A stretch of 64,000 bases of DNA from an uncultured Candidatus Binatia bacterium (GTDB lineage: Bacteria; Desulfobacterota; Binatia; UBA9968; JAJDTQ01): contig OZ244070.1 in the NCBI GenBank assembly GCA_965215605.1, forward strand, positions 192,001 to 256,000, written 5' to 3'. Shown piece by piece: positions 7,786 through 55,142 of the stretch (position 1 is its first letter; each line of letters begins with the position of its first letter). The position numbers were made by a program, and so were the translations under genes. Under the pieces are notes generated by a model that was given only the letters and a program-made list of their open reading frames with translations, ran no database searches and was not told the origin of the DNA.

Positions 7786-7808
7786 CACCTGCCGCCCTCC
7801 CGGGAGCC

Positions 7809-13019: not shown

Positions 13020-13071
13020 TTGACTCTAAAATACTCATGAGTATTTTAGGGTATGGTAGAAAATACTCATG
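13020..13071 (+). promoter_or_regulatory. Putative promoter/operator: perfect 24-bp palindrome plus extra half-site
   Basis: TTGACT at 13020-13025, CTAAAATACTCATGAGTATTTTAG at 13026-13049, AAAATACTCATG repeated at 13060-13071. Confidence 0.6.
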
Positions 13072-13094
13072 GACGCGCCAGCACAGCCAACAGG

Positions 13095-39253: not shown

Positions 39254-39377
39254 TGGATTCCCGGGCGTCCGATTCCCCTTGCCCGGTATTTCCGGGCCGT
39301 TGACCCCCGCCTCCCCGTTCTGTAACACTCGAACCATTGAACGGTCGCACAGAGGAAAGGGCCGCGAGGGGCATTCG

Positions 39378-40409
39378 ATGGATTTCGAATTTCATTACTA
39401 TATGACTTACCTGATCGCCGCCAGAGCGGGCTTCGATCCTGACAACGCCCGTTTGCTGGCCCATTCCTCGCAGTTCATCGACGACAACGACATGGTCTTC
39501 GAGATCGACAAGGGAAAGAGCTCCGCGTACGGCAACTACATCAGTCAGACCATGAACATCCTCAAGCCGAAGCGGGAGCTGTTTCGCATCTACCCGCTCT
39601 TCCACTTCATTCCCGGAGACCCCAAGGCCAGGACCGCGTGGCGCAAGGACGGCAAGATGCACTGGCTGTGCACGACACCCGACAGCCGGAACGCGAACGC
39701 CATCATGGACGATGCGCTCAGGTCGAGGAACGTCTATCGGATCGGGATCGCGGCCCACGGATACGCCGACACCTGGGCGCATCAGAACTTCACCGGCTAC
39801 TACGAGGATTTCAACGCCATGAACACGGGCCTCGGCCTCATCACCCCCAACATCGGACACGCGGACGCCGGGCACAACCCGGATTGGCCCGCCCTGCGCT
39901 GGCGCGATCCGCGGCTGTTGAGCGAGGCGGTGGACAACAAGGCGCGTTTCCTGGCCGCGGCGCGGCGCCTGTACGAAAAATTCGCCGGATTCGTCGACCC
40001 CAGGATATCCGACGCGGTTCTCAAGCGGACGCAGCGCGCGCTGTCACGCGATCTCGCGAAGGCCATCGGCGGGCGGGACCAAACGAACGGCCACTCTTCG
40101 ACACGCGTGTCGCGCTATCTGGAGTTGGCCAAACGCCCTGACTACGGCGGACGCGACTTGCCCGAGTACGACGAAGACCACTGGTTCGGCGAGGCGGTGA
40201 ACGAAGACGTGCGCGGCCTTCGCGACCGCAACGACAACGTTCTCTTGCGCTTCGACCCGTTGACGGACAGGTACACGTGGAAGTCCGGCCAACGTCACAA
40301 ACTCACCCACTGGTATCGGTTCCAGGAGGCCATCAAGACCCAGCAGGAGCATGCGTGGGCCATCTTGCGACGCTCCAATCTCAGGGGTCTCGCGTTGGGA
40401 AACTGGTGA
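39378..40409 (+). CDS. DUF6765-like hypothetical protein (His/Asp-rich putative metallohydrolase)
   Basis: MDFEFHYYMTY..A..AGF, SSQFIDDN, FHFIPGD, GIAAHGYADTWAHQNFTG, IGHADAGHNPD. Confidence 0.65.
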   Translation: MDFEFHYYMTYLIAARAGFDPDNARLLAHSSQFIDDNDMVFEIDKGKSSAYGNYISQTMNILKPKRELFRIYPLFHFIPGDPKARTAWRKDGKMHWLCTTPDSRNANAIMDDALRSRNVYRIGIAAHGYADTWAHQNFTGYYEDFNAMNTGLGLITPNIGHADAGHNPDWPALRWRDPRLLSEAVDNKARFLAAARRLYEKFAGFVDPRISDAVLKRTQRALSRDLAKAIGGRDQTNGHSSTRVSRYLELAKRPDYGGRDLPEYDEDHWFGEAVNEDVRGLRDRNDNVLLRFDPLTDRYTWKSGQRHKLTHWYRFQEAIKTQQEHAWAILRRSNLRGLALGNW

Positions 40410-42528
40410 ATCCTTTCCCCACGAAGATCCGCACGTTGCGGAACCCGTCGATCTCGGCCCGGTCCCGCGGGTTCACCACCACCGTGGTCACCGGGGTCTC
40501 GATGACCGCCGGGCCGGACAGTTCCATGCCCGGGCACATGCGCTGGAAGTCGTAGATGCGGGTGGGGGCGAACTCGCCCAGCTCCTCGAAGAACACGTTG
40601 CGGGGCGGTTTGAGGGCCTCGTCCGCGGGCGCCTTGCGCGCCGGCTCCTTCCTGACCCGGGGCTTCGCCAACAACCCCACCGCGGTGACCCGGAAGGTGA
40701 GAATCTCCTTGCCCGCCTCCCGGTAGCCGGAGCCCTTGCCGTAGGCCTTCTCGTAGGCGTCGTCGAACTCGGCGTAGAGCCGCTCCAGGTCGACCTCCGC
40801 CAGGGACGAGGTTCCCGCAGGCAGCGGTACGTTCAGTTCGTGCACTTGATAACGGTAGCGCATGTCGGCGCTGCGCGTGATCGCCATTTCGGAAGGGCCG
40901 AAACCGGCGGCGCCCAGGTCCGCCCGCGCCCTGCGGATCAGCTCGTCGAAGTTCGCGTTGACGCGGCCGGGATCGGCCGGCACCTGGAGGTGATCGGACT
41001 TGCCGTACTCGTGGACGACGTCGGAGCTGATGAGGCCCGTGGCGCCGTGCACCGAGGCCGTGGGCGGGATCACCACCTGCCGGACGCCGAGGTCGGCGGC
41101 GTAGCGGCTGGCGTGCACCGGCCCGGCACCGCCGAAGGCGAACAGCACGAACGAGCGCGGATCGTGCCCCTTCTCCACCGTCGCGCGGCGGATCAGATCG
41201 CTCATGTGCGCGTTGGAGATGCGGTAGATGCCGCGGGCCGCCTCGGACGCGCTCATGCCCAGGGGCTGCGCGATCCGCCTTGTCACCGCCCCAAGCGCGG
41301 CGTCGCGGTCCAGCCGCATGCGCCCGCCGAGGAAGTAGTCGGGGTTGAGGTAGCCGAGGACGAGATCCGCGTCGGAGACCGTGGGCTCGGCACCGCCGAG
41401 GCCGTAGCACACCGGCCCCGGACGGGCGCCAGCGCCCTCGGGCCCCACCTTGAGAAGGCCGGTCTCTTCCTCGATCCAGGCGACGCTGCCGCCGCCGGCG
41501 CCCACGGACTCGACCCAGATCTTGGGGGCCAGCACCCGGTGGCGGAGCACCACCGGCGTGTAGTCGCGCTCGATCCGCCCTTCCCGTACCACGCCCACCT
41601 TGAACGTGGTGCCGCCCATGTCGGTGGCCAGGATGTCGTGCTCGCCGATCAGCTCGCCCAGGAAACGGGTCCCCACCACCCCCGACACGGGTCCGGATTC
41701 GATGGTGCCCACGGCGTTGCGGCAGGTGGCCTCGATGTCGAGCACGCCGCCGTAGGCCTGCATGATCATCGGCGGCTTGGCCAGCCCCTTGCCCCGCAGC
41801 ACCTGATGGAGATTGACGAGGTAAGCGGAGATGCGCGGGCCGATGTAGGCGTTGAACACCGTGGTGGCGGTGCGCTCGTACTCGCCGACGAACGGCGCCG
41901 TGGCACTCGAAAGGGTGACGTAGACGCCTGGATGACGGCGCCGCAGGATGCCGGCCACCGCCTTCTCGTGGGCGTCGTTGGCCACGGACCAGAGCAGGCA
42001 CACGGCGACGGACTCGACGCCGCGCGCCACCAAGTCGTCCAGGGCGGCGGCGGCCTGCTCCTCGTCCAGGGGCACGGTAACGGCGCCCTTGTAGTCCACG
42101 CGTTCGTTCACCTCGGCCACCAGGGAGCGGGGAACGAAGGGCTCGGGCTTGCGCAGCCAAGCCAGCCGGCCGGCCTCGGCCTCGGTAAGCCCGTCGGTCA
42201 CCTTGCCGCGCATCATGAGCAGCGTATCCGGAAAGCCCCGGGTCGTCACCAGGCCGGTCCTCGGACCGGAGCGGGTGATCAGGGTGTTCTCGCCGATGGT
42301 GCAGGCGTGGAAGAAAAGCGTGGTTTGCCGGAGGAGATCCTCCTCGTCGCCAAGGCCGATATTGCGGGCCGCGTCCCGCACCGCGTCGGCAGCGCCGACG
42401 GAATAGTCCGGCGGCGTGGAAAGCGACTTGCCCACCACCATCTCGCCTTGGTCGTTGACCACGACGCAGTCGGTAAAGGTGCCGCCGATGTCCACGCCGA
42501 CCACGTATCGACCTCGGTAATCACTCAT
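40381..42528 (-). CDS. Hydantoinase A/oxoprolinase family protein
   Basis: GVDIGGTFTD, EYERTATT, SGPVSGV, DMGGTTFKVG, GPEGAGARPGPVCYG. Confidence 0.93.
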   Translation of the reverse strand: MSDYRGRYVVGVDIGGTFTDCVVVNDQGEMVVGKSLSTPPDYSVGAADAVRDAARNIGLGDEEDLLRQTTLFFHACTIGENTLITRSGPRTGLVTTRGFPDTLLMMRGKVTDGLTEAEAGRLAWLRKPEPFVPRSLVAEVNERVDYKGAVTVPLDEEQAAAALDDLVARGVESVAVCLLWSVANDAHEKAVAGILRRRHPGVYVTLSSATAPFVGEYERTATTVFNAYIGPRISAYLVNLHQVLRGKGLAKPPMIMQAYGGVLDIEATCRNAVGTIESGPVSGVVGTRFLGELIGEHDILATDMGGTTFKVGVVREGRIERDYTPVVLRHRVLAPKIWVESVGAGGGSVAWIEEETGLLKVGPEGAGARPGPVCYGLGGAEPTVSDADLVLGYLNPDYFLGGRMRLDRDAALGAVTRRIAQPLGMSASEAARGIYRISNAHMSDLIRRATVEKGHDPRSFVLFAFGGAGPVHASRYAADLGVRQVVIPPTASVHGATGLISSDVVHEYGKSDHLQVPADPGRVNANFDELIRRARADLGAAGFGPSEMAITRSADMRYRYQVHELNVPLPAGTSSLAEVDLERLYAEFDDAYEKAYGKGSGYREAGKEILTFRVTAVGLLAKPRVRKEPARKAPADEALKPPRNVFFEELGEFAPTRIYDFQRMCPGMELSGPAVIETPVTTVVVNPRDRAEIDGFRNVRIFVGKGFTSFPTRDP

Positions 42529-43505
42529 ATAGGGTTGATATAATTACGGTTTTTAAGGGATCTGACCTGCGGATCGCCAGGCATCTCCACGCCCCAGTCA
42601 AGCATCTTCTCGTAGCGCCAGGATGACGTTCTGCCATCCGGATACATCGTTGGAATTTCGGCCTGGTATCTTGATTTTCGGCCTGCCGGATCTTCTTCGG
42701 CAAAGACCGCGACCACGCGGGCTTCGACAGAACGCCGCCTTGGCGCATCCTCCCGTGTCGTCGGATCGTTGAAGGCGGTGTGAAAGGTGACCCGGGAGGC
42801 CAGATCCTCGATGCGGGAATCGTATTGCCTGAAGATCATCGCCTCATTCGGCTCCATCCGTGGAAAGTAATGCCAGTTCTGGGCCATGTCATGAACAAGG
42901 CGGTACAATACCAGGCGGGTGGCCGGCTCGGTCAGGCGCCATCCATCGGAACTGATCATGTCATCGGCCAAGATGGTCGAATGGTCGCACAACGCAAGGG
43001 GTTTTGACTCGATTGCCTGCAGGGGGTCCGTGCTGCGCCAGACAGTGTAGACGCCGAAGTGATGGCCATCAGGTATGTCGAGCACTTCCTCGACATAGGG
43101 AGTCAGATCCGCGTGGGGCGTCTCCGCATAGGTCCCGGCGCCGTTGGGCGAACTTGGCACGCCGGTGCGAAACTCGTGCTGCATGGTCCGTGCACGAAGG
43201 CATCCGGTTGCCGCCATGACCAACTCCGCGCACTGGTCGTAGAACCGGGAAACGACATCGTCATGATTGCCGTAATCGATATCGATCGGCGCATGCACAA
43301 GCTCGAATCCCATGCGCCCGATGGTGGCGGCCGGTTCGAGGGCGCGCGCATCGTGAACGCGGATCGGCTTGACAACGAGCACTTCCGAATGATCGGCCCC
43401 ATCACCGTGGCATGGCAGCCGGAACCCCCGGTATCTCGGATTCACGAAGGCACTTTCCGAAACAACAAACGACGTATCGGGAAACAATGGCAGAGTTCTC
43501 ATCAT
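42525..43505 (-). CDS. CmcJ/NvfI/AsaB-like Fe(II)/2-oxoglutarate-type oxidoreductase (copy 1)
   Basis: IRVHDAR..GFEL, HAD metal motif, VWRS, PLALCD, WHYFPRM, QYDS, FHTAFNDP, RRSVEARV. Confidence 0.82.
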   Translation of the reverse strand: MMRTLPLFPDTSFVVSESAFVNPRYRGFRLPCHGDGADHSEVLVVKPIRVHDARALEPAATIGRMGFELVHAPIDIDYGNHDDVVSRFYDQCAELVMAATGCLRARTMQHEFRTGVPSSPNGAGTYAETPHADLTPYVEEVLDIPDGHHFGVYTVWRSTDPLQAIESKPLALCDHSTILADDMISSDGWRLTEPATRLVLYRLVHDMAQNWHYFPRMEPNEAMIFRQYDSRIEDLASRVTFHTAFNDPTTREDAPRRRSVEARVVAVFAEEDPAGRKSRYQAEIPTMYPDGRTSSWRYEKMLDWGVEMPGDPQVRSLKNRNYINPI

Positions 43506-45016
43506 GACGTCGGCAGGTCCTGGAATTCGGGCGGTTGTGCCTTGCAGTAATCGTCAATGAATTGCTGGTGGTCCGGAAACTGGTCCACCTGCTTGTCGAC
43601 ATTTTCGTGGATGTCAGCCAGGTATTGCCCGAACTCCTCGTCGCTCATCGCATTGGCGATCGGGTGATACTGTTCCGGAATCAGACCCTGGCCCAGCATG
43701 ACCTGCGCCCATGACGTGGTGCCGAACAGTTCCGCCTGGTTCCACGCTATCCGGCCCGTTTGACGAAACAGCTTGATCCGGTGTTCGAGGGAGTCGGGAA
43801 TCTTCATGGTCCGGCACTGCCGCCAGAACGGCGTATCCGAGCGGTTGGTCACATGGTAGTGCAGGATGATGAAATCCCGGATATTGTCGATTTCAAGCTG
43901 CATGTGGGAATTGAACTCTGCGATCCCGGCTTCGCGAATTCCGTTATCGGGGAACATCTGGACCAGGCGGGTGATGCCGCGCTGAATGAGGTGGATGCTG
44001 GTCGATTCGAGCGGTTCGATGAAACCGGATGCCAGTCCCACGGCAACGCAGTTCTTGTGCCAGCACCTGTGCCTCTGGCCGGCTCTGAAACGGATCAGCC
44101 GCGGCTCTGCAAGCACCCGGCCCTGCACATTGTCGAGCAGCCGTGCCCTTGCCTCGTCGTCGGACCAGTGCCGGGAGGAGAACACCATGCCGTTCCCGAC
44201 CCGGTGCTGCAGCGGAATGCGCCATTGCCACCCCGCTTCACGGGCTATCGAGCGGGTATATGGATGCGCGGCTCCGGACGATTCGGTTGGCACCGCGATT
44301 GCGCGGTCACAGGGCAACCAGTCGCCATAATCATCGAAGCCGACATCGAGGGTTTGGCCGATCAGGAGCCCGCGAAAGCCGGTGCAGTCGATGAACAGGT
44401 CGCCGGTGACGAGTTGCCCGGTTTGCAGGCGCAGACCGGTTATGAATCCACTGGCCGGATCCTGTTCCACCTGCTCAATTCGTCCTTCATGCCGGACAAC
44501 GCCAAGCTCCTCGGCAATACCTCGCAGGAATTGTCCGTACAGTCCGGCATCAATATGATAGGCGTAGTTCAGAACGTTGTGCAGGCTGATTGCAAACCGG
44601 TCGCGCAGCGCCGCCGCTGTTTCCGGACAATATTCGCCATAATCCCGGGCCAGGCCCAGCAAATGGCCCCTCAGCCAGTAATGCTGAAAGCCGGCGGTCC
44701 AGCGCTCCCTGCCGACCCACCCGAAGGAATGGAAGTAGTCTTCGCCCAGGTCCCGCCAGTTCTCGAACGAAATTCCAAGCTTGAAGGTACCCTGTACGGC
44801 CCGCAGGAAATCAGTCTCCCTGACATCCATGTATTCGTGAAAAAGTCGCAGCGGTGGAATCGTCGCTTCACCCACCCCGACAGTGCCGATATCGTCGGAT
44901 TCGACCAGGACAATGTCCAGGGTTTCGCCAAGTTGCCGGGCAAACATTGCCGCAGCCATCCATCCGGCAGTCCCACCTCCGGCGATCACGAGTTTCCTGA
45001 TTTTCCTATTGTGCAT
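43502..45016 (-). CDS. Flavin-dependent tryptophan-halogenase family protein (full length, 504 aa)
   Basis: GGGTAG, VGVGEATIP, GTFKLGI catalytic Lys, YAYHIDA, GWQWRIP, FIEPLESTSIH. Confidence 0.93.
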   Translation of the reverse strand: MHNRKIRKLVIAGGGTAGWMAAAMFARQLGETLDIVLVESDDIGTVGVGEATIPPLRLFHEYMDVRETDFLRAVQGTFKLGISFENWRDLGEDYFHSFGWVGRERWTAGFQHYWLRGHLLGLARDYGEYCPETAAALRDRFAISLHNVLNYAYHIDAGLYGQFLRGIAEELGVVRHEGRIEQVEQDPASGFITGLRLQTGQLVTGDLFIDCTGFRGLLIGQTLDVGFDDYGDWLPCDRAIAVPTESSGAAHPYTRSIAREAGWQWRIPLQHRVGNGMVFSSRHWSDDEARARLLDNVQGRVLAEPRLIRFRAGQRHRCWHKNCVAVGLASGFIEPLESTSIHLIQRGITRLVQMFPDNGIREAGIAEFNSHMQLEIDNIRDFIILHYHVTNRSDTPFWRQCRTMKIPDSLEHRIKLFRQTGRIAWNQAELFGTTSWAQVMLGQGLIPEQYHPIANAMSDEEFGQYLADIHENVDKQVDQFPDHQQFIDDYCKAQPPEFQDLPTS

Positions 45017-45236
45017 AACCTGCCTCTGGAGGGTCGACTTGGCGTATTCGCGCCATTGCCGGACTGGTACAGGGCGGTTCAGGGCGGTTCAGTGTGGGCA
45101 AAATCTGCAGTCTGACATACGAGGCATCGACCAGGCCCGGAAGTCGGGGACCGGGCATCATGGGAATGGCGACACTGGCGTGCACCCATGACCGGCAGCG
45201 TTGGAGGATGGAAGTCCCGCTGGAAGAGACGGCAGC

Positions 45237-45305
45237 TCACCCGAAGGGAATGGTGCAGACTCCAGACCGGTCTGCCTGTGCCTCGATCTGTGACGGTGAG
45301 TTCAT
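45237..45305 (-). pseudogene. Internally deleted NHLP precursor remnant (MNSPSQIEAQADRSGVCTIPFG*)
   Basis: Upstream ATGTTCAGAGAA and coding TCACAGATCGAGGC are shared with the precursor at 45410-45670; similarity stops after codon 10. Confidence 0.65.
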
Positions 45306-45364
45306 GTCCGTTCGCCCTGTTCTCTGAACATTGGCACAACGGCATTGCTTGGCAGGAAGAATGG

Positions 45365-45397
45365 CTCCGGCAGAAAATCAGCAGATCACTGCCGGAG
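45365..45397 (-). terminator. Stem-loop just downstream of precursor 1 (terminator or mRNA-stabilising hairpin)
   Basis: CTCCGGCAG...CTGCCGGAG 9-bp stem, 12 nt after the stop. Confidence 0.5.
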
Positions 45398-45409
45398 ACC
45401 CGACAATGC

Positions 45410-45670
45410 TCACCAGGTGTGGATGTCACCAATCCCGCCGGCAACGCCGCTGATTTCCTCATCCGACAGGCTGCGGCCCGCCGGTGGCAGGACCAGGTGA
45501 TAGTCGGTGGCGTTGTCTTCAAGGACATGGATGTTGATGCCGTCCGGAACCGAAAGCCCGGTCGCGTCCTTGATGGCTGCCTTCGGGTCATTCAGGAGCC
45601 GGGCGCGGAATTCTCCGTCCTCGTCGGCCTTGGCAAGTACCTGCGCCTCGATCTGTGATTGTCTGCTCAT
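45410..45670 (-). CDS. NHLP-leader RiPP precursor 1; predicted core IGDIHTW
   Basis: AKADEDGEFRARLLNDPKAAI, HLVLPP, LSDEEISGVAGG double-Gly site; AAGGAG RBS; 86 aa. Confidence 0.92.
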   Translation of the reverse strand: MSRQSQIEAQVLAKADEDGEFRARLLNDPKAAIKDATGLSVPDGINIHVLEDNATDYHLVLPPAGRSLSDEEISGVAGGIGDIHTW

Positions 45671-45858
45671 GTCTTTCTCCTTATTCTCTGAACATCGCCA
45701 TAGCGACATGACGTCCTGCCGTTTTCCACGGCCATTGAACCTCAACTACTTCAGGTCATTGTTCGAGTCAACCCGATTGTTGCAAACTCTGGCGTTCCGT
45801 AAGCGTAAGCGAAACGTAAGCAACTGGCAGCAGAACGGGGCCAGCCGCACACCGGCGG

Positions 45859-46776
45859 CTATCCCGCGTTCCAATCGAGCATCACTTCGTGACGCGACGC
45901 CGCCGGGGTGCCGTCGAGATGGACTGTCGGAACCTCGGCCTGGAATCTGGCCCTTCTGACTTCGCGCTCCGTGTCGTCCTCGCGGAAGACCGCGACGACG
46001 CGCGCCTCCACTGATCGACGCAACGGCGCGTCCTCCCGGGTCGTCGGATCCTTGAAGGCGGAATGAAAGGTCATCCTGCGATTCGGCTCCTCCCGGCGCG
46101 AATCATACTGCACGAAGATCAGCGCCTCGTCCGGCGTCATGCGCGGAAAGTAGTACCAGCACTGACCGAGATTGTGGACAAGGCGGTAGTCCACCAACAG
46201 CGTTGGCGGTTCGGTCCGTCGCATACTGTCGGCGCAGACCATGTCGGTGCGGGATACGGTGGCGCCGTCGCAAAGGGCCAGCGGCATGAACTCTATTTCC
46301 CGTTCCGGATCGATACTGCGCCAGACGTTGAACAGGCCGAAATGCCGCCCTTCCGGGATATCCACGACGTCCTCGATGTAGGGGGTCACGTCGCCGTGGG
46401 CCGGCAGTCCATAGGCGCCGTTGGGGGTTCCATCCCTGAACTCATGTTGCATGACCTCCGCGGCCAGGCATCCGGTCGCCGCTCTGACAAGGTTCAAACA
46501 ATATTCGTAGAAGCGCGTCTTGACGAGCTCCCTGTTGGAGAAATCGATGCGAATGGGAGCTTCCACCAACTGGAAGCCCTGGTCATCGAGACTCGGAGCC
46601 TGCTCGAGCGCGCGGGCGTCATGGACCCGGATCGGCTTGCGGAGAAACATCTGCCGCCTCTCATCCAGATCGAGGGTTTGCTCGTACCCCAGGCGCTTGC
46701 CGCGATACTTTGGGTTCGCGAAGATCGTGTCCGAGATTACCGAGGGCGCGTCTGCCAAGGCCGGGATTCGTCTCAT
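45859..46776 (-). CDS. CmcJ/NvfI/AsaB-like Fe(II)/2-oxoglutarate-type oxidoreductase (copy 2)
   Basis: IRVHDAR..SLDDQGFQL, HGD motif, NVWRS, PLALCD, WYYFPRMTPDE, FHSAFKDP, RRSVEARV. Confidence 0.82.
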   Translation of the reverse strand: MRRIPALADAPSVISDTIFANPKYRGKRLGYEQTLDLDERRQMFLRKPIRVHDARALEQAPSLDDQGFQLVEAPIRIDFSNRELVKTRFYEYCLNLVRAATGCLAAEVMQHEFRDGTPNGAYGLPAHGDVTPYIEDVVDIPEGRHFGLFNVWRSIDPEREIEFMPLALCDGATVSRTDMVCADSMRRTEPPTLLVDYRLVHNLGQCWYYFPRMTPDEALIFVQYDSRREEPNRRMTFHSAFKDPTTREDAPLRRSVEARVVAVFREDDTEREVRRARFQAEVPTVHLDGTPAASRHEVMLDWNAG

Positions 46777-46797
46777 GCTTCCATCTCCGGGTTGATC

Positions 46798-49758
46798 TCA
46801 AGCCATTTGCCGCGATGCAAGGTCACGGAACGGACCGTCCGCGTTGAACAGCTCGTCGAAACGGCCGACCTGCACCACGCGGCCGCCCTTCAGCACGTAG
46901 ATCCGATCCGCCTTGCGGATGGTGGACAGCCGGTGGGCAATGACGAAACGAGTGCCGGTGGATTCCTCGACGGCCTTCATCGTCTGCGCCTGGCTCTTGG
47001 TGTCGAGCCAGCTCGTGGGCTCGTCGAGGAAGACGATGCGCGGGTTCCGCACCAGCGCGGCGGCGAGGCCGATGCGCTGACCCTGACCACCCGAGAACGT
47101 CGCCGCGTTCTCGCCTACCGTGGTGTAGAGCCCCATCGGCATGTTGCGGATGTCCTGGTCGACGGCCGCCAGGCGGGCGGCGCGCCACGCATCGACCGTG
47201 GTCAGATCGTTGCCGATGCCGATGATGTTGGTGAGAATGGTGCCGGCCTGGAGCGAGCCGTTCTGCATGACCACGCCGATCTGCCGCCGCACGGCGCCGA
47301 CGTCCAGTTGGGCCAGGTCCTGACCGTCGTAGTACACCGCGCCCGACGACGGCTTCTCCAGCCCCAGCGCAAGCCGGAACACCGTGCTCTTGCCGGCGCC
47401 CGATTCGCCCACCACCGCGACGAACTCGCCGGGCTTCGCGTGAATCGAGACCTCTTGCAGTATCCTGGGGCTGCCCTCGGAATAACTGAAGCTCACCTTG
47501 TCGAGGACGACTTCCCCTTCGAGTGTCGGCCGGATGCCGCGTCGGGCTCCGGCGTCCACCGGGCTCGCGAGTATCGGAAGCACCTGCTCGCATGCCGGCT
47601 TGATGAATGCCACGGCCCTGGCCGAATTGCCCAGCATCACGATGGACAGGCAAAAGACCATGGCCGCGATGTGGACGGCCACGAAGCCCGCCGCCGGGAG
47701 TCCACCGGCGCCTTGCGACGCCACCACCGAGAACAGGACGGCGCTGGCCAGCGCGGGCACTCCGGCGCTGAAGGCGGTGAGGCGTTCGCCGAGGACGGCT
47801 ATCCGGATCTCCGCCTGCTTGTGTTCCCGGTAGCGCTTCGCCCAGGCGGCGAAAGCCGAGTCTTCCGCGCCGGTGGCGCGCAGCTTGGCGATGCCGTTCA
47901 GGAACTGGTGCATGTCGCCGGCGAGTTGGCGCGCCGTTTCGAGGTGGCGCCGCTGCGGTTCGACATTGAGGATGCAAAAGACGGCCGTGGCGCCGAGCAC
48001 GACCATGCCCAGAAACACCATGGCCCAGCCCAGCGCCGCGCTGTGGTAGAACAGCAGCCCGAAGGCAGGCAACACGAACAACGTCGACAACACCGCGTCG
48101 GCCGTGACTCCGGCGACATTGTCCCTGATTTCCTGGAAGACCATGGACCGCGCCACCAGCTCGCCCGCGGTGAAGCGGCGAAAGAAGGCCGATGGCAGGC
48201 GCAGCAGACGGTCCCATACGGTCGAGACGAGCCGCGCGGCCAGACGCCCCTCCAGACGCATGAGCGCAGTGCCGCGGAGGACGTGCGCCGCCGCCGCCAC
48301 GAAGGCCAGCCCCACCAGAACGGCCGAGAACTGAATCAGCGCGGCCGCGTCGCCCGCGGGGATCACCCGGTCGACCAGCAGGTCGACGGCCACGGCCGGC
48401 GCGAGACTCAGCAAACCGGCGCCGAGGCCCGCGGCCACGAGCCGGCCGGTCTCGGTGGCGGCCTTTGTGCCGCCGACACGGAACAACTCGCGCAGTCCGG
48501 CGGCGCCCTCGGCGTGGAGCCTGGGATACAGCAGGCGAGCGTCGCGAATCTCGTGGGTCGTCTCGGCGCTGGCGGGTGTGGACTCACCGGTCACCGGATC
48601 CACCACGCGGTACCGGCCCGCCCGGCCGGGCAGCAGGACGACAGGACGGTCATCGTCGCGCCGAAAGGCCAGCAGCGCGCCGCTGTCCCCCAGGTACCAA
48701 CGGTCTTCCACCAACAGCCGGACTCGGCGCTCACGCACTCCCGACGCCTCGCAGTAATCGCGGAGCGACGGTTCCGCCCCGGCGCCGACGGCCGGCGTAC
48801 TGAATCGGATGCCTTCGTGCCGGCCGATGATCCGCAATGCGTTCCCGAGGGCCGTACCGTCCAACGCCGTCTCGTCACCGGCGTCAGACAGGCTCGACAG
48901 GTTCCGCCTGGCCAAGGCCTTGTCGTGGCGGCGCTGCGAAGCCTGCGCCACCTGCAGATTGGCGTCGTCGACCCGCAGCAGCCGCCGGTGCATGGACTCG
49001 GCGCCGAGAACCAACCGATGAAACTCCGGCAAGGCTGAGGTCAGCAGCGTGGCGATGTCGATCTCGCCGGTGGACACCCCGGTAATGTCCGTGGCCGAAT
49101 GCAGCCTGAGCCAGGTATCCCGGGTCAGGGGCATCATGCCGGGACCGTCCCTCCCCCCGGTGTCCGCCAGATCGAGGAAGGTAGCCTGGAGGTCGTCGGC
49201 CACAACCCAGACCACGCCGCGCTCGGCCGACACGATGCCGCTGCCCGCCGCACCTCCGGGAAGGAGCCGATGCTCGGTTCGGGGATGCTCCTCCATTTCG
49301 CGAACCACGGCGCCGCCCAGGTCCTCGATCCAGGCATCGACCTGCGCGCGCAGCGCGCACGAGAGCCGGTCGGCGTCGTCGCTCCGCTGCGCCGCGTCCA
49401 GCAACCGGTGGAGGGACAAGCAACGCAAGGAGGACCCTTGCAGTCCCTTCGCGATCAGTTTCAGGGAATGAGCGGCCGCGCCGGCGCCGAACGCCAGCCG
49501 GCCCTGCTCCAGGCGCACGACATGCCTGAAGGGCGACTGCATCTGGTCATCGGCGTACTCTGCCGCCAGGACGTCGATGGCTCCTCGTTCGACGAACCAG
49601 ACGACGCCGGCGTCCTGCAGGTGGATCGGGCGGCTTGCGGCGGCTTCCCGTGGCTCGCCGAACGCCGCGGCGAACTCGGCCAGCACGTCCCTCGGTTGTT
49701 CGTCATTCGCCACGAAGCAGCCCGTGGTAGAAGGTGCCGGCGGCGTGGAGCTCGTCAT
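46798..49758 (-). CDS. NHLP bacteriocin export ABC transporter permease/ATPase (TIGR03797-like)
   Basis: N-terminal cNMP-like/degenerate peptidase region, WDRLLRLP..FFRRFTAGEL, GESGAGKS, FSGGQ, LDEPTSWLD. Confidence 0.9.
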   Translation of the reverse strand: MTSSTPPAPSTTGCFVANDEQPRDVLAEFAAAFGEPREAAASRPIHLQDAGVVWFVERGAIDVLAAEYADDQMQSPFRHVVRLEQGRLAFGAGAAAHSLKLIAKGLQGSSLRCLSLHRLLDAAQRSDDADRLSCALRAQVDAWIEDLGGAVVREMEEHPRTEHRLLPGGAAGSGIVSAERGVVWVVADDLQATFLDLADTGGRDGPGMMPLTRDTWLRLHSATDITGVSTGEIDIATLLTSALPEFHRLVLGAESMHRRLLRVDDANLQVAQASQRRHDKALARRNLSSLSDAGDETALDGTALGNALRIIGRHEGIRFSTPAVGAGAEPSLRDYCEASGVRERRVRLLVEDRWYLGDSGALLAFRRDDDRPVVLLPGRAGRYRVVDPVTGESTPASAETTHEIRDARLLYPRLHAEGAAGLRELFRVGGTKAATETGRLVAAGLGAGLLSLAPAVAVDLLVDRVIPAGDAAALIQFSAVLVGLAFVAAAAHVLRGTALMRLEGRLAARLVSTVWDRLLRLPSAFFRRFTAGELVARSMVFQEIRDNVAGVTADAVLSTLFVLPAFGLLFYHSAALGWAMVFLGMVVLGATAVFCILNVEPQRRHLETARQLAGDMHQFLNGIAKLRATGAEDSAFAAWAKRYREHKQAEIRIAVLGERLTAFSAGVPALASAVLFSVVASQGAGGLPAAGFVAVHIAAMVFCLSIVMLGNSARAVAFIKPACEQVLPILASPVDAGARRGIRPTLEGEVVLDKVSFSYSEGSPRILQEVSIHAKPGEFVAVVGESGAGKSTVFRLALGLEKPSSGAVYYDGQDLAQLDVGAVRRQIGVVMQNGSLQAGTILTNIIGIGNDLTTVDAWRAARLAAVDQDIRNMPMGLYTTVGENAATFSGGQGQRIGLAAALVRNPRIVFLDEPTSWLDTKSQAQTMKAVEESTGTRFVIAHRLSTIRKADRIYVLKGGRVVQVGRFDELFNADGPFRDLASRQMA

Positions 49759-51922
49759 GCGTTCCCTGCTCCACGATGCGGCCCTTGTCGACGACGATGA
49801 TCCGGTCGGCGTCGCGGATGGTGCTCAGCCGATGCGCGATGATCAGACAGGAGCATCCGCGACGCCGGATTCGATCGTCGATGAGCAACTCGGTTACGGG
49901 GTCGAGGGCGCTGGTGGCTTCATCGAGGATCAGCAGCGACGGGTTGTTGACCAGCGCCCGGGCGATTTCCAGGCGCATGCGCTGTCCGCCGCTGAAGTTG
50001 CGTCCTCCCTCTTCCACCATGGACTCGTAGCCCGCCGGGCGGCCGATGATGTCCTCATGAACCGCGGCGTCGCGGGCCGCGGCGGTCACATGGTGATCCG
50101 GTATCGTCGCGGTCCACATGGTGAGGTTGTTGCGTATGGTCGTGGCGAACAGGACCGCATGCTGATCGACCATGGAGACGGACCGGCAGAATACCTCCCG
50201 CGGGATATCGACTTGCGGGTGGCCGTCGAAGAGCACTTCCCCGGACCAGGGCCGATGCAGACCCGCCGCCAGAAGCGCCAACGTGGACTTGCCCGAACCG
50301 CTGGGCCCCACCACCGCAACGCGCTGGCCGGGCTCGATGGTCAGGTTGAAGTCCTCGACGAGCGGCGCACGGTTCCGCTGGAAACCGAACGTGACGCCCC
50401 GCATCTCCAATCGTCCGACCAGACGCAGCCGGCCGTCGAGCGTCATGACCCGCTGTTGCGCGTCGGCGGCATGGTCGGGATAGGACATCTCCTGCGGCGC
50501 ATTGACCACGTCGTCCATCCTTGCCATATCGGCCTCCAGCGTCTCCAGCAGATCGGAGAACTGGGAAACCCGGGCCACGGGACCCAGAAAATTACCGGCG
50601 AGAACGTAGAATCCCATCAACCCGCCAAGGGTCATCTCGCCCGACATCGTGCGCCAGCCGCCAAGGCCGAACACCGCCGCCGCCGCGAGTATCTGAAACA
50701 GTTGCGGCAGCGCCGCGGCCACATGACCGAGTTCCACGAACGCCTGCCGCGCGCTCAGCTCGCGAGCCTGTCTGCCACTCCACAGCGAGAAGAAATCGGC
50801 CTCGCGGGCGGTTGCCTGCAAGGTCTCGATCATCTTGACGCCCGCCGTGCCCACCCCGAACGATATGCCCTGCTCGCGCCGTAGTCGATGGTTCTTGTCC
50901 CGGCGGAGGCGGGTCAGCACCTGTATCGACGCGACGCTGGCAACTCCCAAACCCCCAACCACAAGCGCCAGCCAGACATCGTATGCCACCATGACAACCA
51001 GAAAGGTCGCGCTCATGATGAGATCTACGGACAGCCGCACCATCTGGCCGGCTCCGGTGTCGGCGATCTGGTCGATGGTCCGCATGCGCAACGCCAGGTC
51101 TCCGGCGAGCCGGTGGGCGAAGAACCGCATGGGAAGCCGAAGCAAACGATCCAGGAAGTAGTCTGATTGGCTTATGGCAAGCCGGACGATGAGTTCGCGC
51201 AGGGAACGCATCTGGAGCCAGGTCAACAGGCAGATCAGCACGCTGGCGGCGAACATCGCCGCGATCAGCGCCCTGCTCTGACCCATCTGCTGGTCCTGAA
51301 AAACGCGATCCACGAATTCCGCAAGCAATACCGGCGGCGCCAGCAAGGTCAAGGCAAGGAGCAGGCCGTAGACGGCGGTGCGGGTCAGGAGGGAGCGATG
51401 GCCTCGCAACCACGGCCACAGGCGGCGCGCGACACCCGGACGCGCCCCGCCGGGCCGAAACGTGGGGCCCGGCTCGAGAATCAGGCCGACGCCCGTAAAC
51501 TCCTGACCGAAGTCACGCGCGTCGACGACGCGATGACCTTCGGCGGGATCATTCAGATAGTAGCGCCCGCGCGCGATGCCCTCCAGGACCACGAAGTGCC
51601 TGAATCCCCAATACAGGACCATCGGCTTCGGCAGCTTGGCGAGGCCATGGACCTGGCTGCTCCAGCCGGTGGCCTTCAGGCCGTATTTCCTGGCGGCGAT
51701 GGCGATGTCTTCGAGCGTCGAACCGTCACGCCCGACTCCGCAGTCGTCACGCAGAACTTCCAGGGGCACCCTGCGCCCGAAATGGGCGAGCACGGCGCCA
51801 AGGCATGCCGCGCCGCAGTCGGCCGCCTCCAACTGCATGAACAACGGTGTGCGGCGCGGTCTCCGCCAGCGCCCGAGCGTCCCGGGAGCAGCGGAGAATT
51901 TTGATTCGGCAGGATCAGCCAT
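49703..51922 (-). CDS. C39 peptidase-containing ABC transporter of NHLP systems (TIGR03796-like)
   Basis: RTPLFMQLEAADCGAACL catalytic Cys, HFVVLEG His, GPSGSGKS, FSGGQRMRLEIAR, LDEATSALD. Confidence 0.93.
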   Translation of the reverse strand: MADPAESKFSAAPGTLGRWRRPRRTPLFMQLEAADCGAACLGAVLAHFGRRVPLEVLRDDCGVGRDGSTLEDIAIAARKYGLKATGWSSQVHGLAKLPKPMVLYWGFRHFVVLEGIARGRYYLNDPAEGHRVVDARDFGQEFTGVGLILEPGPTFRPGGARPGVARRLWPWLRGHRSLLTRTAVYGLLLALTLLAPPVLLAEFVDRVFQDQQMGQSRALIAAMFAASVLICLLTWLQMRSLRELIVRLAISQSDYFLDRLLRLPMRFFAHRLAGDLALRMRTIDQIADTGAGQMVRLSVDLIMSATFLVVMVAYDVWLALVVGGLGVASVASIQVLTRLRRDKNHRLRREQGISFGVGTAGVKMIETLQATAREADFFSLWSGRQARELSARQAFVELGHVAAALPQLFQILAAAAVFGLGGWRTMSGEMTLGGLMGFYVLAGNFLGPVARVSQFSDLLETLEADMARMDDVVNAPQEMSYPDHAADAQQRVMTLDGRLRLVGRLEMRGVTFGFQRNRAPLVEDFNLTIEPGQRVAVVGPSGSGKSTLALLAAGLHRPWSGEVLFDGHPQVDIPREVFCRSVSMVDQHAVLFATTIRNNLTMWTATIPDHHVTAAARDAAVHEDIIGRPAGYESMVEEGGRNFSGGQRMRLEIARALVNNPSLLILDEATSALDPVTELLIDDRIRRRGCSCLIIAHRLSTIRDADRIIVVDKGRIVEQGTHDELHAAGTFYHGLLRGE

Positions 51923-51929
51923 GCGGGGC

Positions 51930-52100
51930 TTACGGCCACAACGTAACTGCGGCCCAGGCTACGAGCATCAGCAACGGGACCAGAAGCGCCGCCACGAAAA
52001 CGCGCTCATGCGGTGCCGTCACGCGCAACAGGTCGTCCACTGCCTCGGGTTGCACGCTGCGGATGAGCGCTTCCTGGCGGTAAACGGAGGGGGCCGGCAT
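51930..52100 (-). CDS. 56-aa ORF matching only the N-terminal anchor of the NHLP HlyD-family secretion protein (mini-protein or truncated gene)
   Basis: MPAPSVYRQEALIRSVQPEAVDDLLRVTAPHERVFVAALLVPLLMLVAWAAVTLWP*; resembles the FRxEAL...PEQLDxLxxVTxP-TM start of TIGR03794-type proteins and sits in the expected gene position. Confidence 0.7.
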   Translation of the reverse strand: MPAPSVYRQEALIRSVQPEAVDDLLRVTAPHERVFVAALLVPLLMLVAWAAVTLWP

Positions 52101-52118
52101 CAGGCAAGGAAGGGGTGA

Positions 52119-52140
52119 GCGGCGCGTCTACCCGCGCCGC
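52119..52140 (-). terminator. GC-rich hairpin downstream of precursor 2
   Basis: GCGGCGCG-N6-CGCGCCGC. Confidence 0.5.
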
Positions 52141-52164
52141 CCCTCATTGAACCGGTCTAAGCGA

Positions 52165-52425
52165 TTACCAAAGAGCGCTCCAGGAACCACCGGCGGCCGC
52201 GCGCATTTCTTCGTCCGAGAGAGCACCCCCGGCCGGCGGCAGGACCAGATGAACGTCCGTGGCGCTCTCTTCGTGAACGTGGACGGTCAGGTCCTCCGGC
52301 ATGGCCAACCCCGTGGCTTGCTCAATGGCCTTCCTCGGATCTTCCAGGAGCAGGGCACGGAATGCTTCGTCCTCGTCCGCCTTCGCTCGCACGAGAACCT
52401 CGACCTCTGGTGAAGAATTTGCCAT
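52165..52425 (-). CDS. NHLP-leader RiPP precursor 2; predicted core SWSALW
   Basis: AKADEDEAFRALLLEDPRKAI, HLVLPP, LSDEEMRAAAGG; AAGGAGGA RBS; 86 aa. Confidence 0.92.
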   Translation of the reverse strand: MANSSPEVEVLVRAKADEDEAFRALLLEDPRKAIEQATGLAMPEDLTVHVHEESATDVHLVLPPAGGALSDEEMRAAAGGSWSALW

Positions 52426-52540
52426 TGAATCCTCCTTTACGTTCGCCGTTAGGGGTGAATTTCCAGGCCTCGGCTTCGCCCGCGGCCGCTCCAGGAGGGC
52501 CGCCGAACCGGCGCTGAAGGCCCACATCAGCACAAATCCA

Positions 52541-52569
52541 CTGATACACGCACCGCTTGCGAGAGTCAA
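52541..52569 (-). promoter_or_regulatory. Putative sigma70 promoter for the precursor-2/exporter operon
   Basis: On the - strand: TTGACT-17 nt-TATCAG. Confidence 0.35.
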
Positions 52570-52669
52570 GGCAGCCTGCGACCGACGGTGCGCCCATGGT
52601 GGCAACGGCAACGGTGAGCGGCTATAGGAAAAGGGGACCGAACTGCTTCACCCCTGAGGGTTTCGTGCA

Positions 52670-53944
52670 ATGGTACAGCCGGGCGCCGAGTCTTTACGGA
52701 AAATCGCCGTTGTGGGGCGAGGAACCGCCGGGTCCATGGCGACCGCCAGCATCACACATGCCCTCCGGGACACGGACCACGAGCTGCACCACATCTACGA
52801 CTCGCGCATTCCGGTCATCGGCGTGGGTGAAGGCAGTTGGCCAAGCCTTGTTCGTGAGTTGCAGCGACTGACGCATCTTCCCCTTGACGCGATTCAAATG
52901 CGCGTGAAGGGAACCCGCAAGTACGGCGTGGCATTCGAGGGCTGGGGCCGGCGCAACCAAAACTTCATCCATTACTTCATGCCGCGCCATGAGTCCTACG
53001 GCTACCATCTGTCTGCCGACTTGATGGCGGACCTCCTGCGGGAACACACGAGAGCGCGCCACATCGACGCCAAAGTGCTTGACATCACCAGGGTGGAGGA
53101 CGGCGCCCGGGTGGAATTCGAGAATCTGGCGCCGGAACGCTACGATCTGGTCTTCGATGCCCGCGGTTTTCCGAGAGAACTTCATCCCGACCAGCACATC
53201 CACATCCCCTTCATCCCCACCAATACGGCCGTCATCCGGCGCTGTCCGGCGATCTTCGAGGAAGCGCAGGACGGGCCGGTTCTGCAACACACCTTTACCC
53301 GCGCCGTCGCGCGTCCCCACGGCTGGATATTCGTGATTCCGCTTACCACGCACACGTCCTGCGGGTACATCTTCAACCGCGACGTATCGAGCCCCGCCGC
53401 GGTCGAGTCCGACTTCGACGCGTTCCTCAAGACGGAAGGAATATCCGAATTCGAGCAACGCGCCGTCATTCCGTTCCCGAATTTCGTCCATCGCGCCATG
53501 TATGACGGCGCAATAGCACGCATCGGCAATGCGGCGACGTTCATGGAACCCCTTGAAGCGACGGCGATCGGGGGCGCCGGGGCCCAGATCGGACTGGTGC
53601 TTCACGCGCGCCTCAGCCGTCCGGTGGAAAAACTCGAAGAGGACGCACCGGTGGTCAACCGGTTTCTCGTCAAAAACATGCTCTCCTTCGGCCTGTTCGT
53701 CGGTTGGCACTATGCCCGCGGCTCGAACTACGACAGCGGTTTCTGGCGCCATGCTCGTGATCACGCCTGGCCGCGGCACCGCAGGGCGTTGGACACCGAG
53801 CCGGCGGGTTCCCCCGCGCTCCGGAGTTTCGACGAGATGATCGAAGCGACGGCCCGCACCGTCATCGATGCAGCGGACTGGAAACGGGAATGCGGGTTCC
53901 CGTTCAGCAGCTATTACCAGATGTCTCAGGGCCTCGGCTGTTGA
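52670..53944 (+). CDS. Short, divergent flavin-dependent halogenase family protein (424 aa)
   Basis: GRGTAG, IGVGEGSWP, GTRKYGV (Lys retained), YGYHLSA, GWIFVIP, FMEPLEATAI. Confidence 0.82.
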   Translation: MVQPGAESLRKIAVVGRGTAGSMATASITHALRDTDHELHHIYDSRIPVIGVGEGSWPSLVRELQRLTHLPLDAIQMRVKGTRKYGVAFEGWGRRNQNFIHYFMPRHESYGYHLSADLMADLLREHTRARHIDAKVLDITRVEDGARVEFENLAPERYDLVFDARGFPRELHPDQHIHIPFIPTNTAVIRRCPAIFEEAQDGPVLQHTFTRAVARPHGWIFVIPLTTHTSCGYIFNRDVSSPAAVESDFDAFLKTEGISEFEQRAVIPFPNFVHRAMYDGAIARIGNAATFMEPLEATAIGGAGAQIGLVLHARLSRPVEKLEEDAPVVNRFLVKNMLSFGLFVGWHYARGSNYDSGFWRHARDHAWPRHRRALDTEPAGSPALRSFDEMIEATARTVIDAADWKRECGFPFSSYYQMSQGLGC

Positions 53945-54038
53945 CAACGTTCCCGCAATTTCACTAAGGTCTGCACCTATCCGGCTTCGGCCGAGGCATC
54001 AACCGGTCGGGAAAGCCCCGGCAAAGGAGGGTATACGG

Positions 54039-55025
54039 ATGAAGAAGATTGCACTCGGGGTGTTCGTCGCCCTGTTCGTTCTGGCCGCATCCGCGCAGGC
54101 GGAGGTCACGATAAAACTCAGCACCTGCCTGGCAAAAACCCACGACCAGGTGGAAACGTATTTCCAGGCCTTCTTCGACAAGTTCAACGAAGCGGCCAAG
54201 GGCGAGGCCAGGATCCAATACGTGGGCGGCCCGGAAGTTTCGCCGCGACAGAAGCAGGGTCCGGCGCTCAGGCGCGGCCTGGTGGACATGATCTTCTGTC
54301 CCATGGGCTACTACGAGGGAATGGTGGCGGAAGCCGGCCTGACCTCGGTGACCAACCTGTCCACCAAGGAGCTCCGTAACAACGGCGCCATCGACCAGCT
54401 CCAACCGGTGTGGGCCAAGAAATTCAACGGGATGATCCTGGGCTGGTGCTGCTACGGCGTCGACTTCCACATCTACACCACCTTCAAACCCAAGACGAAC
54501 ACCAAGACCGGCCTTGATCTGTCGGGCCACAAGATGCGCTCCACCGCGACGTACAGACCCTTCCTCAGCGCCATGGGGGCCATTCCCGTCACCATGGCAG
54601 CCGCGGAAATGTACACCGGTCTGCAGCGAGGCGTGGTGCAGGGGCTCGCATGGCCGGAGGGAGCACTGGCCAAGTACGGGGTCCAGAAGTTCCTCAAGTA
54701 CCGCGTCTACCCCGGATTCTATCGCAGCGGCTCCATGGTCGTGATCAACCTGGACAAGTTCAAGTCCTATCCCAAGTCCGTGCAGGACAAGCTGGTCCAG
54801 GCGGGTCTGGCGTTCGAGCAAGGCAGCGAGCCCATCCTCCGCGCGAAGGCCGACGCGGACAACAAGAAGCTGTGGGCTTCGGGCCTTCAGAAGCTGGAGC
54901 TCAAGGGCGAAGAGCGAAAGGCTTATCTGCGCACCGTGTACGAGCTCGCCTGGGACGTACGGAAGGACAAGCCGTATACCGTCCCGTTTGCAAAGCTCAA
55001 GGAGAAGATGTACCGCGCGCCCTGA
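54039..55025 (+). CDS. dctP: TRAP transporter substrate-binding protein
   Basis: Signal peptide, GGPEV, ALRRGLVDM, DLSGHKMR, EMYTGLQRGVVQG. Confidence 0.9.
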   Translation: MKKIALGVFVALFVLAASAQAEVTIKLSTCLAKTHDQVETYFQAFFDKFNEAAKGEARIQYVGGPEVSPRQKQGPALRRGLVDMIFCPMGYYEGMVAEAGLTSVTNLSTKELRNNGAIDQLQPVWAKKFNGMILGWCCYGVDFHIYTTFKPKTNTKTGLDLSGHKMRSTATYRPFLSAMGAIPVTMAAAEMYTGLQRGVVQGLAWPEGALAKYGVQKFLKYRVYPGFYRSGSMVVINLDKFKSYPKSVQDKLVQAGLAFEQGSEPILRAKADADNKKLWASGLQKLELKGEERKAYLRTVYELAWDVRKDKPYTVPFAKLKEKMYRAP

Positions 55026-55046
55026 GGGCCGCACGGTCCAAACAGC

Positions 55047-55093
55047 AAAAAACGCCCCCGATCCGCAGTGCCGGATCGGGGGCGTTTTCTTTT
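55047..55093. terminator. Bidirectional intrinsic terminator
   Basis: AAAAAACGCCCCCGATCCG-loop-CGGATCGGGGGCGTTTTCTTTT between convergent dctP and dctM. Confidence 0.85.
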
Positions 55094-55142
55094 CGGGTGC
55101 GCGGGACGTCCCGCGCGAGGACGCCCGCCGTTGTCCCTCTTC

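Follow-up and report, generated by a model that had tools for sequence, protein, structure and literature searches.

We analyzed a 64,000-nucleotide (nt) stretch of contig OZ244070.1 from an uncultured Candidatus Binatia bacterium (hereafter the window; coordinates given without a contig or locus label are positions within it). At 42525–53944 it carries nine genes that we read as a probable pathway for short, halogenated and oxidized peptides: two precursors with NHLP leaders, two flavin-dependent halogenases, two oxygenases of the CmcJ/NvfI family, a C39 peptidase-containing ATP-binding cassette (ABC) transporter (PCAT), a second ABC transporter, and a truncated HlyD-like protein. An initial annotation had listed these genes and proposed that they represent a new class of RiPP (a peptide synthesized ribosomally and modified post-translationally) matured only by halogenases and CmcJ/NvfI-like oxidases. 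The open reading frame (ORF) list, together with Pfam and NCBIfam scans of the nine proteins, recovered every one of the genes where it had been placed.

Gene content and two separable units

Unit A (42525–45858, about 3.3 kb, with a lower G+C content of 0.60) comprises three genes: CmcJ1 (42525–43505, −), encoding a 326-amino acid (aa) CmcJ/NvfI-family Fe(II)/2-oxoglutarate (Fe/2OG) oxygenase (NF041278, 151.8 bits); Hal1 (43502–45016, −), encoding a 504 aa flavin-dependent halogenase of the Xcc4156/BrvH lineage (PF04820, 628 bits); and PrecA (45410–45670, −), encoding an 86 aa NHLP-leader precursor (TIGR03793, 74.6 bits). Unit B (45859–53944) begins with CmcJ2 (45859–46776, −), a second oxygenase of the same family (305 aa; NF041278, 168.6 bits). 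It continues with ABC2 (46798–49758, −; 986 aa; TIGR03797, 665 bits), an NHLP-type export ABC permease/ATPase that lacks a peptidase domain; PCAT (49703–51922, −; 739 aa; Peptidase_C39, 101.7 bits; TIGR03796, 849.7 bits); mini-HlyD (51930–52100, −; 56 aa), which has no Pfam or NCBIfam match; and PrecB (52165–52425, −), a second 86 aa NHLP-leader precursor (TIGR03793, 64.3 bits). Divergent from PrecB lies Hal2 (52670–53944, +; 424 aa; PF04820, 142 bits), a SrpI-type halogenase. The boundaries of the cluster hold, because it is flanked by genes for hydantoinase A/B, DUF6765, and the TRAP transporter DctPQM. As the initial annotation had noted, Pfam and NCBIfam scans found no YcaO, LanM, radical SAM enzyme, methyltransferase, or flavin reductase among the nine proteins, and a tblastn search of the window with the YcaO of the same genome as query gave no match. 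Outside the cluster, the genome has two flavin reductase genes.

Comparison with genome G021, from the same genus, separates the two units. Its copy of unit B (locus L021) is 97% identical at the nucleotide level to window 45852–55112, with reading frames kept, and its CmcJ2 gene is directly followed by the hydantoinase gene, so unit A is an insertion in the window relative to G021. The CmcJ1-Hal1-PrecA cassette of G021 sits about 70 kb away from its unit B locus. The genome of the window has a second copy of the cassette on contig C6 (locus L019, 405–3881; core IGDINTW), which is 96%–97% identical to window 42586–45771 and is nearest to the cassette of G021/G045 (L032). This 17 kb contig also holds degenerate precursor fragments beside the cassette and, at 7594–13569, a DNA cytosine-methylase-like gene and helicase/restriction-type genes. 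What the initial annotation had treated as a single cluster is thus better described as two separable units, with unit A behaving as a mobile cassette and both sharing one export machine.

Of the 25 same-genus genomes compared, only 2 contain orthologs of these CmcJ proteins; the remaining genomes have only paralogs at about 35% identity. This distribution would suit a silent or decaying acquisition that yields no product in this organism, as would the degenerate precursor remnants found beside the C6 copy and also in loci L024 and L032. However, all nine ORFs are intact with every catalytic motif present, and the frames are kept in the copy 97% identical to that of G021. In addition, the Hal1 stop and CmcJ1 start overlap by 4 nt (43502–43505), and the PCAT 3′ end and the predicted ABC2 start overlap by 56 nt (49703–49758), which suggests translational coupling or, for ABC2, a later true start. 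We consider a silent relic extremely unlikely and proceed with the reading of a working peptide pathway.

Operons could not be defined from a promoter and terminator scan, because the signal was too weak: the region has 5 promoter-like sites against 1.5 ± 1.3 expected, and its 9 terminator-like sites (7.8 expected) are not above chance. A weak terminator-like hairpin (45379–45394, −), with a six-pair stem followed by a T-run, lies 16 nt past the PrecA stop and serves as a pointer only.

The export proteins have the features of an NHLP-type system. PCAT carries DCGAAC at residue 35 and HFVV at residue 109, in which we take DCG...C and HFVV to be active C39 motifs, as well as a Walker A box and an ABC signature; the latter two are also present in ABC2. 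A Pfam scan at E ≤ 5 assigned no family to the roughly 300 aa N-terminal extension of ABC2 or to mini-HlyD, the only match being RanGAP1_C at chance level (E 0.11). Mini-HlyD is nevertheless 41% identical over 44 aa to the N terminus of the 302 aa NHLP HlyD of the same genome (L020:1792–2700). It consists of the N-terminal cytoplasmic stretch and one hydrophobic helix and ends there, without the periplasmic lipoyl, hairpin, and barrel domains of HlyD (TIGR03794). The ORF is similarly short (49–72 aa) in all eight loci that include the region upstream of PCAT, and on this comparison the name mini-HlyD is fair. Such a stub suggests that export would proceed across the inner membrane without an outer-membrane duct.

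Precursors and candidate modifying enzymes

Both precursors exceed the cut-off of the NHLP leader model TIGR03793 (50.9 bits). The PrecA leader ends LSDEEISGVAGG (...VAGG) and is followed by the core IGDIHTW; the PrecB leader ends LSDEEMRAAAGG (...AAGG) and is followed by the core SWSALW. Neither core contains Cys. In an alignment of 13 precursors, the glycines at 78 and 79 (G78, G79) never vary and L68 is kept in 13/13, and the earlier proposal that a C39 peptidase cleaves after GG holds. Both leaders have L at position −12 and I or M at −7, rather than the second L of an L-x4-L motif.

We drew precursor homologs from a collection of 5.8 billion proteins and obtained 47 of type A and 35 of type B. 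The C-terminal residue is Trp in 47/47 type A homologs and aromatic in 35/35 of type B (23 Tyr and 12 Trp), so that Trp or Tyr ends all 82. IGDIDTW is the commonest type A core (17/47), IGDIHTW and IGDINTW occur four times each, and most others are close variants; the pattern [WF]APT[DNS][DS]SY dominates type B. At L031:3416–4464 (genome G042, just beyond L025), three tandem precursors lie beside one Hal1-type halogenase gene. Two have the cores IGDINTW and TNNYGPWGW, and the third has a longer tail that lacks GG and finishes with ...GTPTW; a single set of enzymes there seems to act on several cores.

CmcJ1 and CmcJ2 are 56% identical and score above the 80 bit cut-off of NF041278. Residues H131-x-D133, H242, and R257 of CmcJ1 are invariant in 57/57 aligned subfamily sequences, and their counterparts in CmcJ2 are H127-x-D129, H238, and R253. 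A phmmer comparison of CmcJ2 with the endoperoxidase NvfI (7de2) gave an E value of 1e-13, with the HxD motif, the distal His, and the Arg aligned. When the AlphaFold2 model of CmcJ1 (predicted local distance difference test [pLDDT] score 90.1) was compared with the PDB by Foldseek, ranks 1–10 were all NvfI or CTB9 (E 5e-21 to 2e-16; template modeling [TM] score 0.64–0.78), and no other fold exceeded a TM score of 0.4. The window proteins thus share family model, triad, and fold with NvfI, CTB9, and CmcJ. They differ in that CmcJ1 is only 17%–25% identical to the solved members and in their association with peptide precursors instead of terpenoid, polyketide, or β-lactam pathways. The subfamily around CmcJ2 comprises 66 database clusters at E ≤ 1e-30, with 47% identity or more. 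On these comparisons, the CmcJ proteins form a distinct bacterial subfamily. Ten CmcJ database clusters each agree exactly with a precursor cluster in the length of the longest contig, which points to the same contig, adjacency not being shown by it. A metagenome scan with the CmcJ alignment returned 597 pattern matches and no relatives.

The type of reaction (hydroxylation, desaturation, oxidative decarboxylation, or something stranger, as in NvfI and CTB9) cannot be told from sequence. Aromatic-aromatic cross-linking as the general CmcJ reaction was considered and rejected, since cores of the IGDIDTW type have only one aromatic residue. The C-terminal aromatic residue is the likeliest site of oxidation, because it is the only feature common to all of the cores.

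That same constancy would fit a pathway in which the C-terminal Trp or Tyr is halogenated and oxidized on a peptide carrier and then released as a small aromatic metabolite, possibly through Cα hydroxylation by CmcJ and subsequent bond collapse, with the short peptide left as a by-product or recycled. In cephalosporins, CmcJ itself adds a hydroxyl group to the carbon that adjoins an acylated nitrogen. There are also small-molecule pathways built on the C-terminal Trp of a peptide, as in the ammosamide work. However, the other core positions are strongly conserved in both precursor types, which a mere carrier would not need; conservation extends to a C39 exporter dedicated to the peptide cleaved at GG; and Pfam and NCBIfam scans found no extra protease or PEARL-like gene in the cluster. 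We therefore regard a metabolite released from a peptide scaffold as unlikely and favor the modified peptide itself as the product.

The two halogenases expected from the initial annotation are both present, and they appear to belong to different lineages, Hal1 being of the Xcc4156/BrvH type and Hal2 of the SrpI type. Both exceed the PF04820 cut-off of 21 bits. We take GxGxxG, a catalytic Lys, WxWxIP, and a conserved Glu to be the key motifs of flavin-dependent halogenases. These are represented in Hal1 by GGGTAG13, K79, WQWRIP263, and FIEPLE332, and in Hal2 by GRGTAG16, K84, WIFVIP219 (a WxFxIP variant of WxWxIP), and FMEPLE291. The nearest solved relatives of Hal1 are 6y1w, 9luq, and 6frl. 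Along almost its whole length, Hal1 matches Xcc4156 (6y1w) with 631 bits and, as a rough estimate from the printed alignment, about 62% identity; it matches BrvH (6frl) at 486 bits. The MibH structure 5uao is matched at 194 bits by Hal1 and at 72.6 bits by Hal2.

Xcc4156 is described as an enzyme that only brominates, leaves free Trp unhalogenated, and offers an open site “possibly even for peptides”; like BrvH, it brominates free indole in vitro, and its authors regard the native substrate as unknown (PMC7336383). Hal1 aligns end to end with these proteins and keeps their catalytic Lys, WxWxIP, and Glu motifs, and differs from them in its setting: its gene belongs to a conserved cassette along with a CmcJ gene and that of an NHLP precursor ending in Trp, a context that the available text of that paper does not report. 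This cassette therefore supplies a concrete candidate substrate. Another context for the Xcc4156/BrvH lineage is seen at L036:3903–8739 and L040:2394–7223, which hold paired genes of the Trp-halogenase family, one 68%–70% and one 34%–36% identical to Hal1, near an ABC transporter gene; the fetched stretch contains no NHLP precursor.

SrpI depends on a leader to brominate a C-terminal Trp, and it accepts penta- to heptapeptide cores (PMC12615548, PMC10286304). It brominates indole C6, acts in vitro on free indole and not on free Trp (PMC10286304), and it requires an L-x4-L motif in the leader (PMC10858898). Published details of SrpI include catalytic Lys84, self-brominated Tyr102 and Tyr110, a leader-binding loop P105-Q-Q-V-S109, and LysC peptides 81–135 and 85–135 (PMC10286304, PMC10858898). 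This background bears out what the initial annotation had said of SrpI. Residues K80, K84, Y102, P105, S109, Y110, and K135 of Hal2 stand at the residue numbers published for SrpI, a likeness at seven colinear positions that comes from those numbers and not from a direct sequence alignment. Hal2 has no further Lys in 85–134, which fits the LysC peptides, and its loop residues 106–108 differ from those of SrpI. Because of the L at −12 and the I or M at −7, both leaders carry the motif that SrpI needs. Bromination at C6 is expected here by analogy with SrpI and Xcc4156, and Hal2 would probably brominate its substrate at indole C6.

Recurrence and related clusters

The initial annotation had held that its proposal would fall if the gene combination did not recur in other genomes. 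A scan of one genome per species gave ten loci, from Candidatus Binatia, Pseudomonadales (2), Boseongicola, Alphaproteobacteria (3), Rhodospirillales, Gammaproteobacteria, and Rhodobacter. Together with the window, the C6 copy, and two later loci, these provide 15 CmcJ-type genes in 11 genomes, some of them related and so not independent samples. The combination recurs: 14/15 of the CmcJ-type genes lie beside NHLP parts, with a precursor in the locus in 13/15 and a halogenase in 11/15. L030 is cut by a contig end, and in L025 the precursor and halogenase sit just past the fetched flank. The gene string mini-ORF, PCAT, ABC2, CmcJ is kept in 8 loci, and the three-gene precursor-halogenase-CmcJ cassette is maintained across phyla. 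The gene set is more than a chance assembly, because it recurs across several phyla. An orphan CmcJ1-type gene at L029:9929–11068 has an altered, Gly/Ser-rich C terminus; there are no NHLP parts within 10 kb, and its neighbors are an ankyrin-repeat gene and a transposase-like fragment (12409–12877) at the contig end.

In a tree, the CmcJ proteins form two clades, A and B (support 1.0), and A-clade proteins go with A-type cores in 9/9 cases and B-clade proteins with B-type cores in 4/4. The partners of A-clade CmcJ are Hal1-type halogenases and cores of the form [IVF][GS]D[IM]x[TS]W, whereas B-clade partners have variable cores.

These associations bear on the possibility that the enzymes act on free indole, Trp, or some other small molecule and merely travel with NHLP and transporter genes on a mobile island. 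Enzymes of the CmcJ/NvfI/CTB9 family are known for small-molecule substrates, as PDB titles indicate. In keeping with a mobile island, unit A behaves as a mobile cassette with its second copy beside methylase and restriction genes. Furthermore, Xcc4156, BrvH (PMC7336383), and SrpI (PMC10286304) all brominate free indole. Nevertheless, the cassette is kept tightly together across phyla, the enzyme clade tracks the core type, the precursors all end in a residue that such halogenases attack, and SrpI needs a leader and does not brominate free Trp (PMC10286304). Free small molecules as the true substrates thus seem very unlikely to us, and we retain the peptide cores in that role.

Six of the CmcJ loci contain a further protein of about 350–375 aa for which there is no Pfam or NCBIfam model (L027:10885–11946, −; L026:14465–15517, +; L023:10564–11679, −; L033:3275–4327, −; L028:11001–12074, −; L022:8009–9088, −), and members of the same family lie beside YcaO in four genomes; paralogs were located at L020:14085–15212 (−), L034:2019–3140 (+), and L037:5771–6892 (−). 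The genes always lie within NHLP clusters and adjoin either a CmcJ or a YcaO. The top 45 fold ranks for the AlphaFold2 model of this protein (pLDDT 82) were all ABBA aromatic prenyltransferases, among them CloQ, EpzP, PagF, AmbP1, LimF, NphB/Orf2, and DMATS1, with TM scores of 0.38–0.52 when normalized to the query and up to 0.54 when normalized to the target; a language-model search agrees, at the level of a lead. The model suggests that this protein is probably an unannotated peptide Trp/Tyr prenyltransferase. No such ABBA-like protein of about 350 aa is found in the window. Maturation by halogenases and CmcJ proteins alone, as first proposed, therefore stands for the window but not for the six related loci.

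Clusters resembling srp/mpr exist in the same genomes. In the genome of the window, one lies at C1:480000–496000 (L020), about 240 kb from the window, with a core ending ...SAGLCCCGI. It contains the 302 aa HlyD, a PCAT, an ABC2, a precursor, an HAE3/MMPL-type transporter, an FAD oxidase, a methyltransferase, the 375 aa ABBA-like protein, and a SagD-type YcaO, and no halogenase. Similar YcaO clusters occur in G041, G043, and G044, and the cores LSCCL, LSCCM, and RCCC are found outside the genome of the window. These arrangements suggest a modular kit in which YcaO and the CmcJ-type oxygenase would be alternative core-modifying enzymes.

An unrelated gene for a DUF6765 protein (39363–40409, +; 236 bits) lies outside the cluster, between two hydantoinase/oxoprolinase genes on the opposite strand.

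Proposed pathway and relation to known systems

Based on the sequence comparisons, we propose with a probability of about 0.7 that leader-guided halogenation of the C-terminal Trp and Fe/2OG oxidation of the core would precede cleavage after GG and export. Each 86 aa precursor would present a folded NHLP leader with L-x4-(I/M) at −12 to −7, the GG site, and a core of six or seven residues ending in Trp. With the leader still attached, Hal2 would halogenate the C-terminal Trp of SWSALW, by homology probably placing Br at indole C6, and Hal1, as its gene context suggests, would halogenate that of IGDIHTW. The CmcJ of each unit would then oxidize the core of that unit, most likely at or near the C-terminal aromatic residue, by hydroxylation, desaturation, or another oxidative change; here too, context is the guide. 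Reduced flavin would be supplied by the flavin reductases encoded elsewhere in the genome. By homology, the C39 domain of PCAT would cut after GG, and PCAT, ABC2, and mini-HlyD would export the modified hexa- or heptapeptide. The chemical steps, their order, the halide, and the site of oxidation are all inferred.

Several observations weigh against this proposal. To our knowledge, the characterized CmcJ, NvfI, and CTB9 proteins all act on small molecules and none on a peptide, so that only the gene context argues for a peptide substrate of the CmcJ proteins. The match between CmcJ clade and core type is not independent evidence, because related genomes share these labels by descent. Hal1-like halogenases (51%–70% identity) occur at L035, L036, and L040 with no NHLP gene in the fetched stretch, and the L029 CmcJ gene is an orphan next to a transposase fragment. 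Both transporters fall just under the equivalog level of models that are nonetheless their best matches (PCAT, 849.7 versus a TIGR03796 cut-off of 853.3; ABC2, 665 over residues 302–985 versus a TIGR03797 cut-off of 709.4). No product, mass, or transcript has been seen, and no RNA run is listed for the region, which is a blank rather than evidence; in a search of sequencing runs, eight DNA-type entries from two studies contain 0.44–0.57 of the region's words, and the source sample may be among them. Finally, there is no halogenase in the fetched L022 locus (core WAPTNDSY), and none of the proteins of the complete L028 genome, which has a chromosome-length contig of 4.2 Mb (core FSGQAW), matches PF04820. 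As these two related clusters have no halogenase, halogenation is not essential to the family, and since many type B cores also end in Tyr, the pairing of halogenase and CmcJ that the initial annotation took as defining does not hold. Three elements are constant in the family, namely the CmcJ-type oxygenase, the NHLP leader, and the C-terminal aromatic residue, and halogenation is a frequent extra.

The closest known system is formed by the srp clusters, with precursor SrpE, brominase SrpI, and YcaO SrpC. Like these, the window cluster has NHLP precursors with a GG site and an L-x4-L-type motif, cores of five to seven residues ending in Trp, a SrpI-type halogenase, NHLP-type PCAT/ABC2 export, and a spread across phyla. 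It differs in its lack of YcaO, in cores without Cys (the srp core is LCCCW), in the CmcJ/NvfI-type oxygenase that stands in place of YcaO, and in an HlyD reduced to a 56 aa stub; the full srp gene list was not part of this comparison. We do not file the cluster as srp, because no YcaO was found and its cores have no Cys. Instead, its gene content places it as a sister to the srp proteusin clusters, with YcaO replaced by CmcJ. Thus the kit proposed as a new RiPP class does recur and is, as far as we found, undescribed, but “class” is too strong a term. MibH, from NAI-107 (microbisporicin) biosynthesis, is likewise a flavin-dependent halogenase that acts on Trp within a ribosomal peptide. However, MibH chlorinates a lanthipeptide after leader removal (PMC12615548), whereas the SrpI precedent predicts leader-dependent action on a linear core here.

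We found no paper that describes this combination or that ties CmcJ/NvfI enzymes to NHLP or any other RiPP precursor, as the initial annotation had supposed; the founding srp paper and all supplementary files were outside the coverage of the search, and a prior mention there is possible. The core sequences were found in no paper. In its available text, a 2022 survey of sponge RiPP clusters speaks in general terms of NHLP alongside cupin-4 enzymes, halogenases, and oxidoreductases, and not of this combination (PMC9426513), and the available part of a 2026 preprint, which sets RiPPs aside, does not describe it (10.64898/2026.08.03.742642).

A bolder extension, which we put forward tentatively and think doubtful, is that a family of 6–9-residue peptides, widespread and undescribed, has the CmcJ proteins as its class-defining enzymes, and that these proteins modify the C-terminal Trp or Tyr by β-hydroxylation, α,β-desaturation, or oxidative decarboxylation to an enamide. 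Together with a C6-brominase, they would then produce termini of the bromo-dehydrotryptophan or dehydrotryptamine kind, and Trp-ended NHLP peptides would be the native substrates of the Xcc4156/BrvH lineage. Marine invertebrates have orphan brominated peptide alkaloids with termini of this kind. If the proposed pathway is correct, CmcJ/NvfI-type Fe/2OG oxygenases would be a new enzyme family in peptide maturation, and cores like IGDIDTW and WAPTDDSY, borne on an NHLP leader that is well behaved, would be ready-made tiny substrates for it. The Xcc4156/BrvH brominases gain a concrete, testable candidate for their native substrate. Leader-guided halogenases already serve in peptide cross-coupling chemistry (PMC10286304), and another leader-linked halogenase, unrelated to the first, would together with an oxygenase extend the tools available for it. 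The comparison also shows that the srp-type kit is modular, with the NHLP leader, SrpI-type halogenase, PCAT/ABC2 export, and ABBA prenyltransferase-like protein as parts, and with YcaO exchangeable for an oxygenase in versions that coexist in single genomes.

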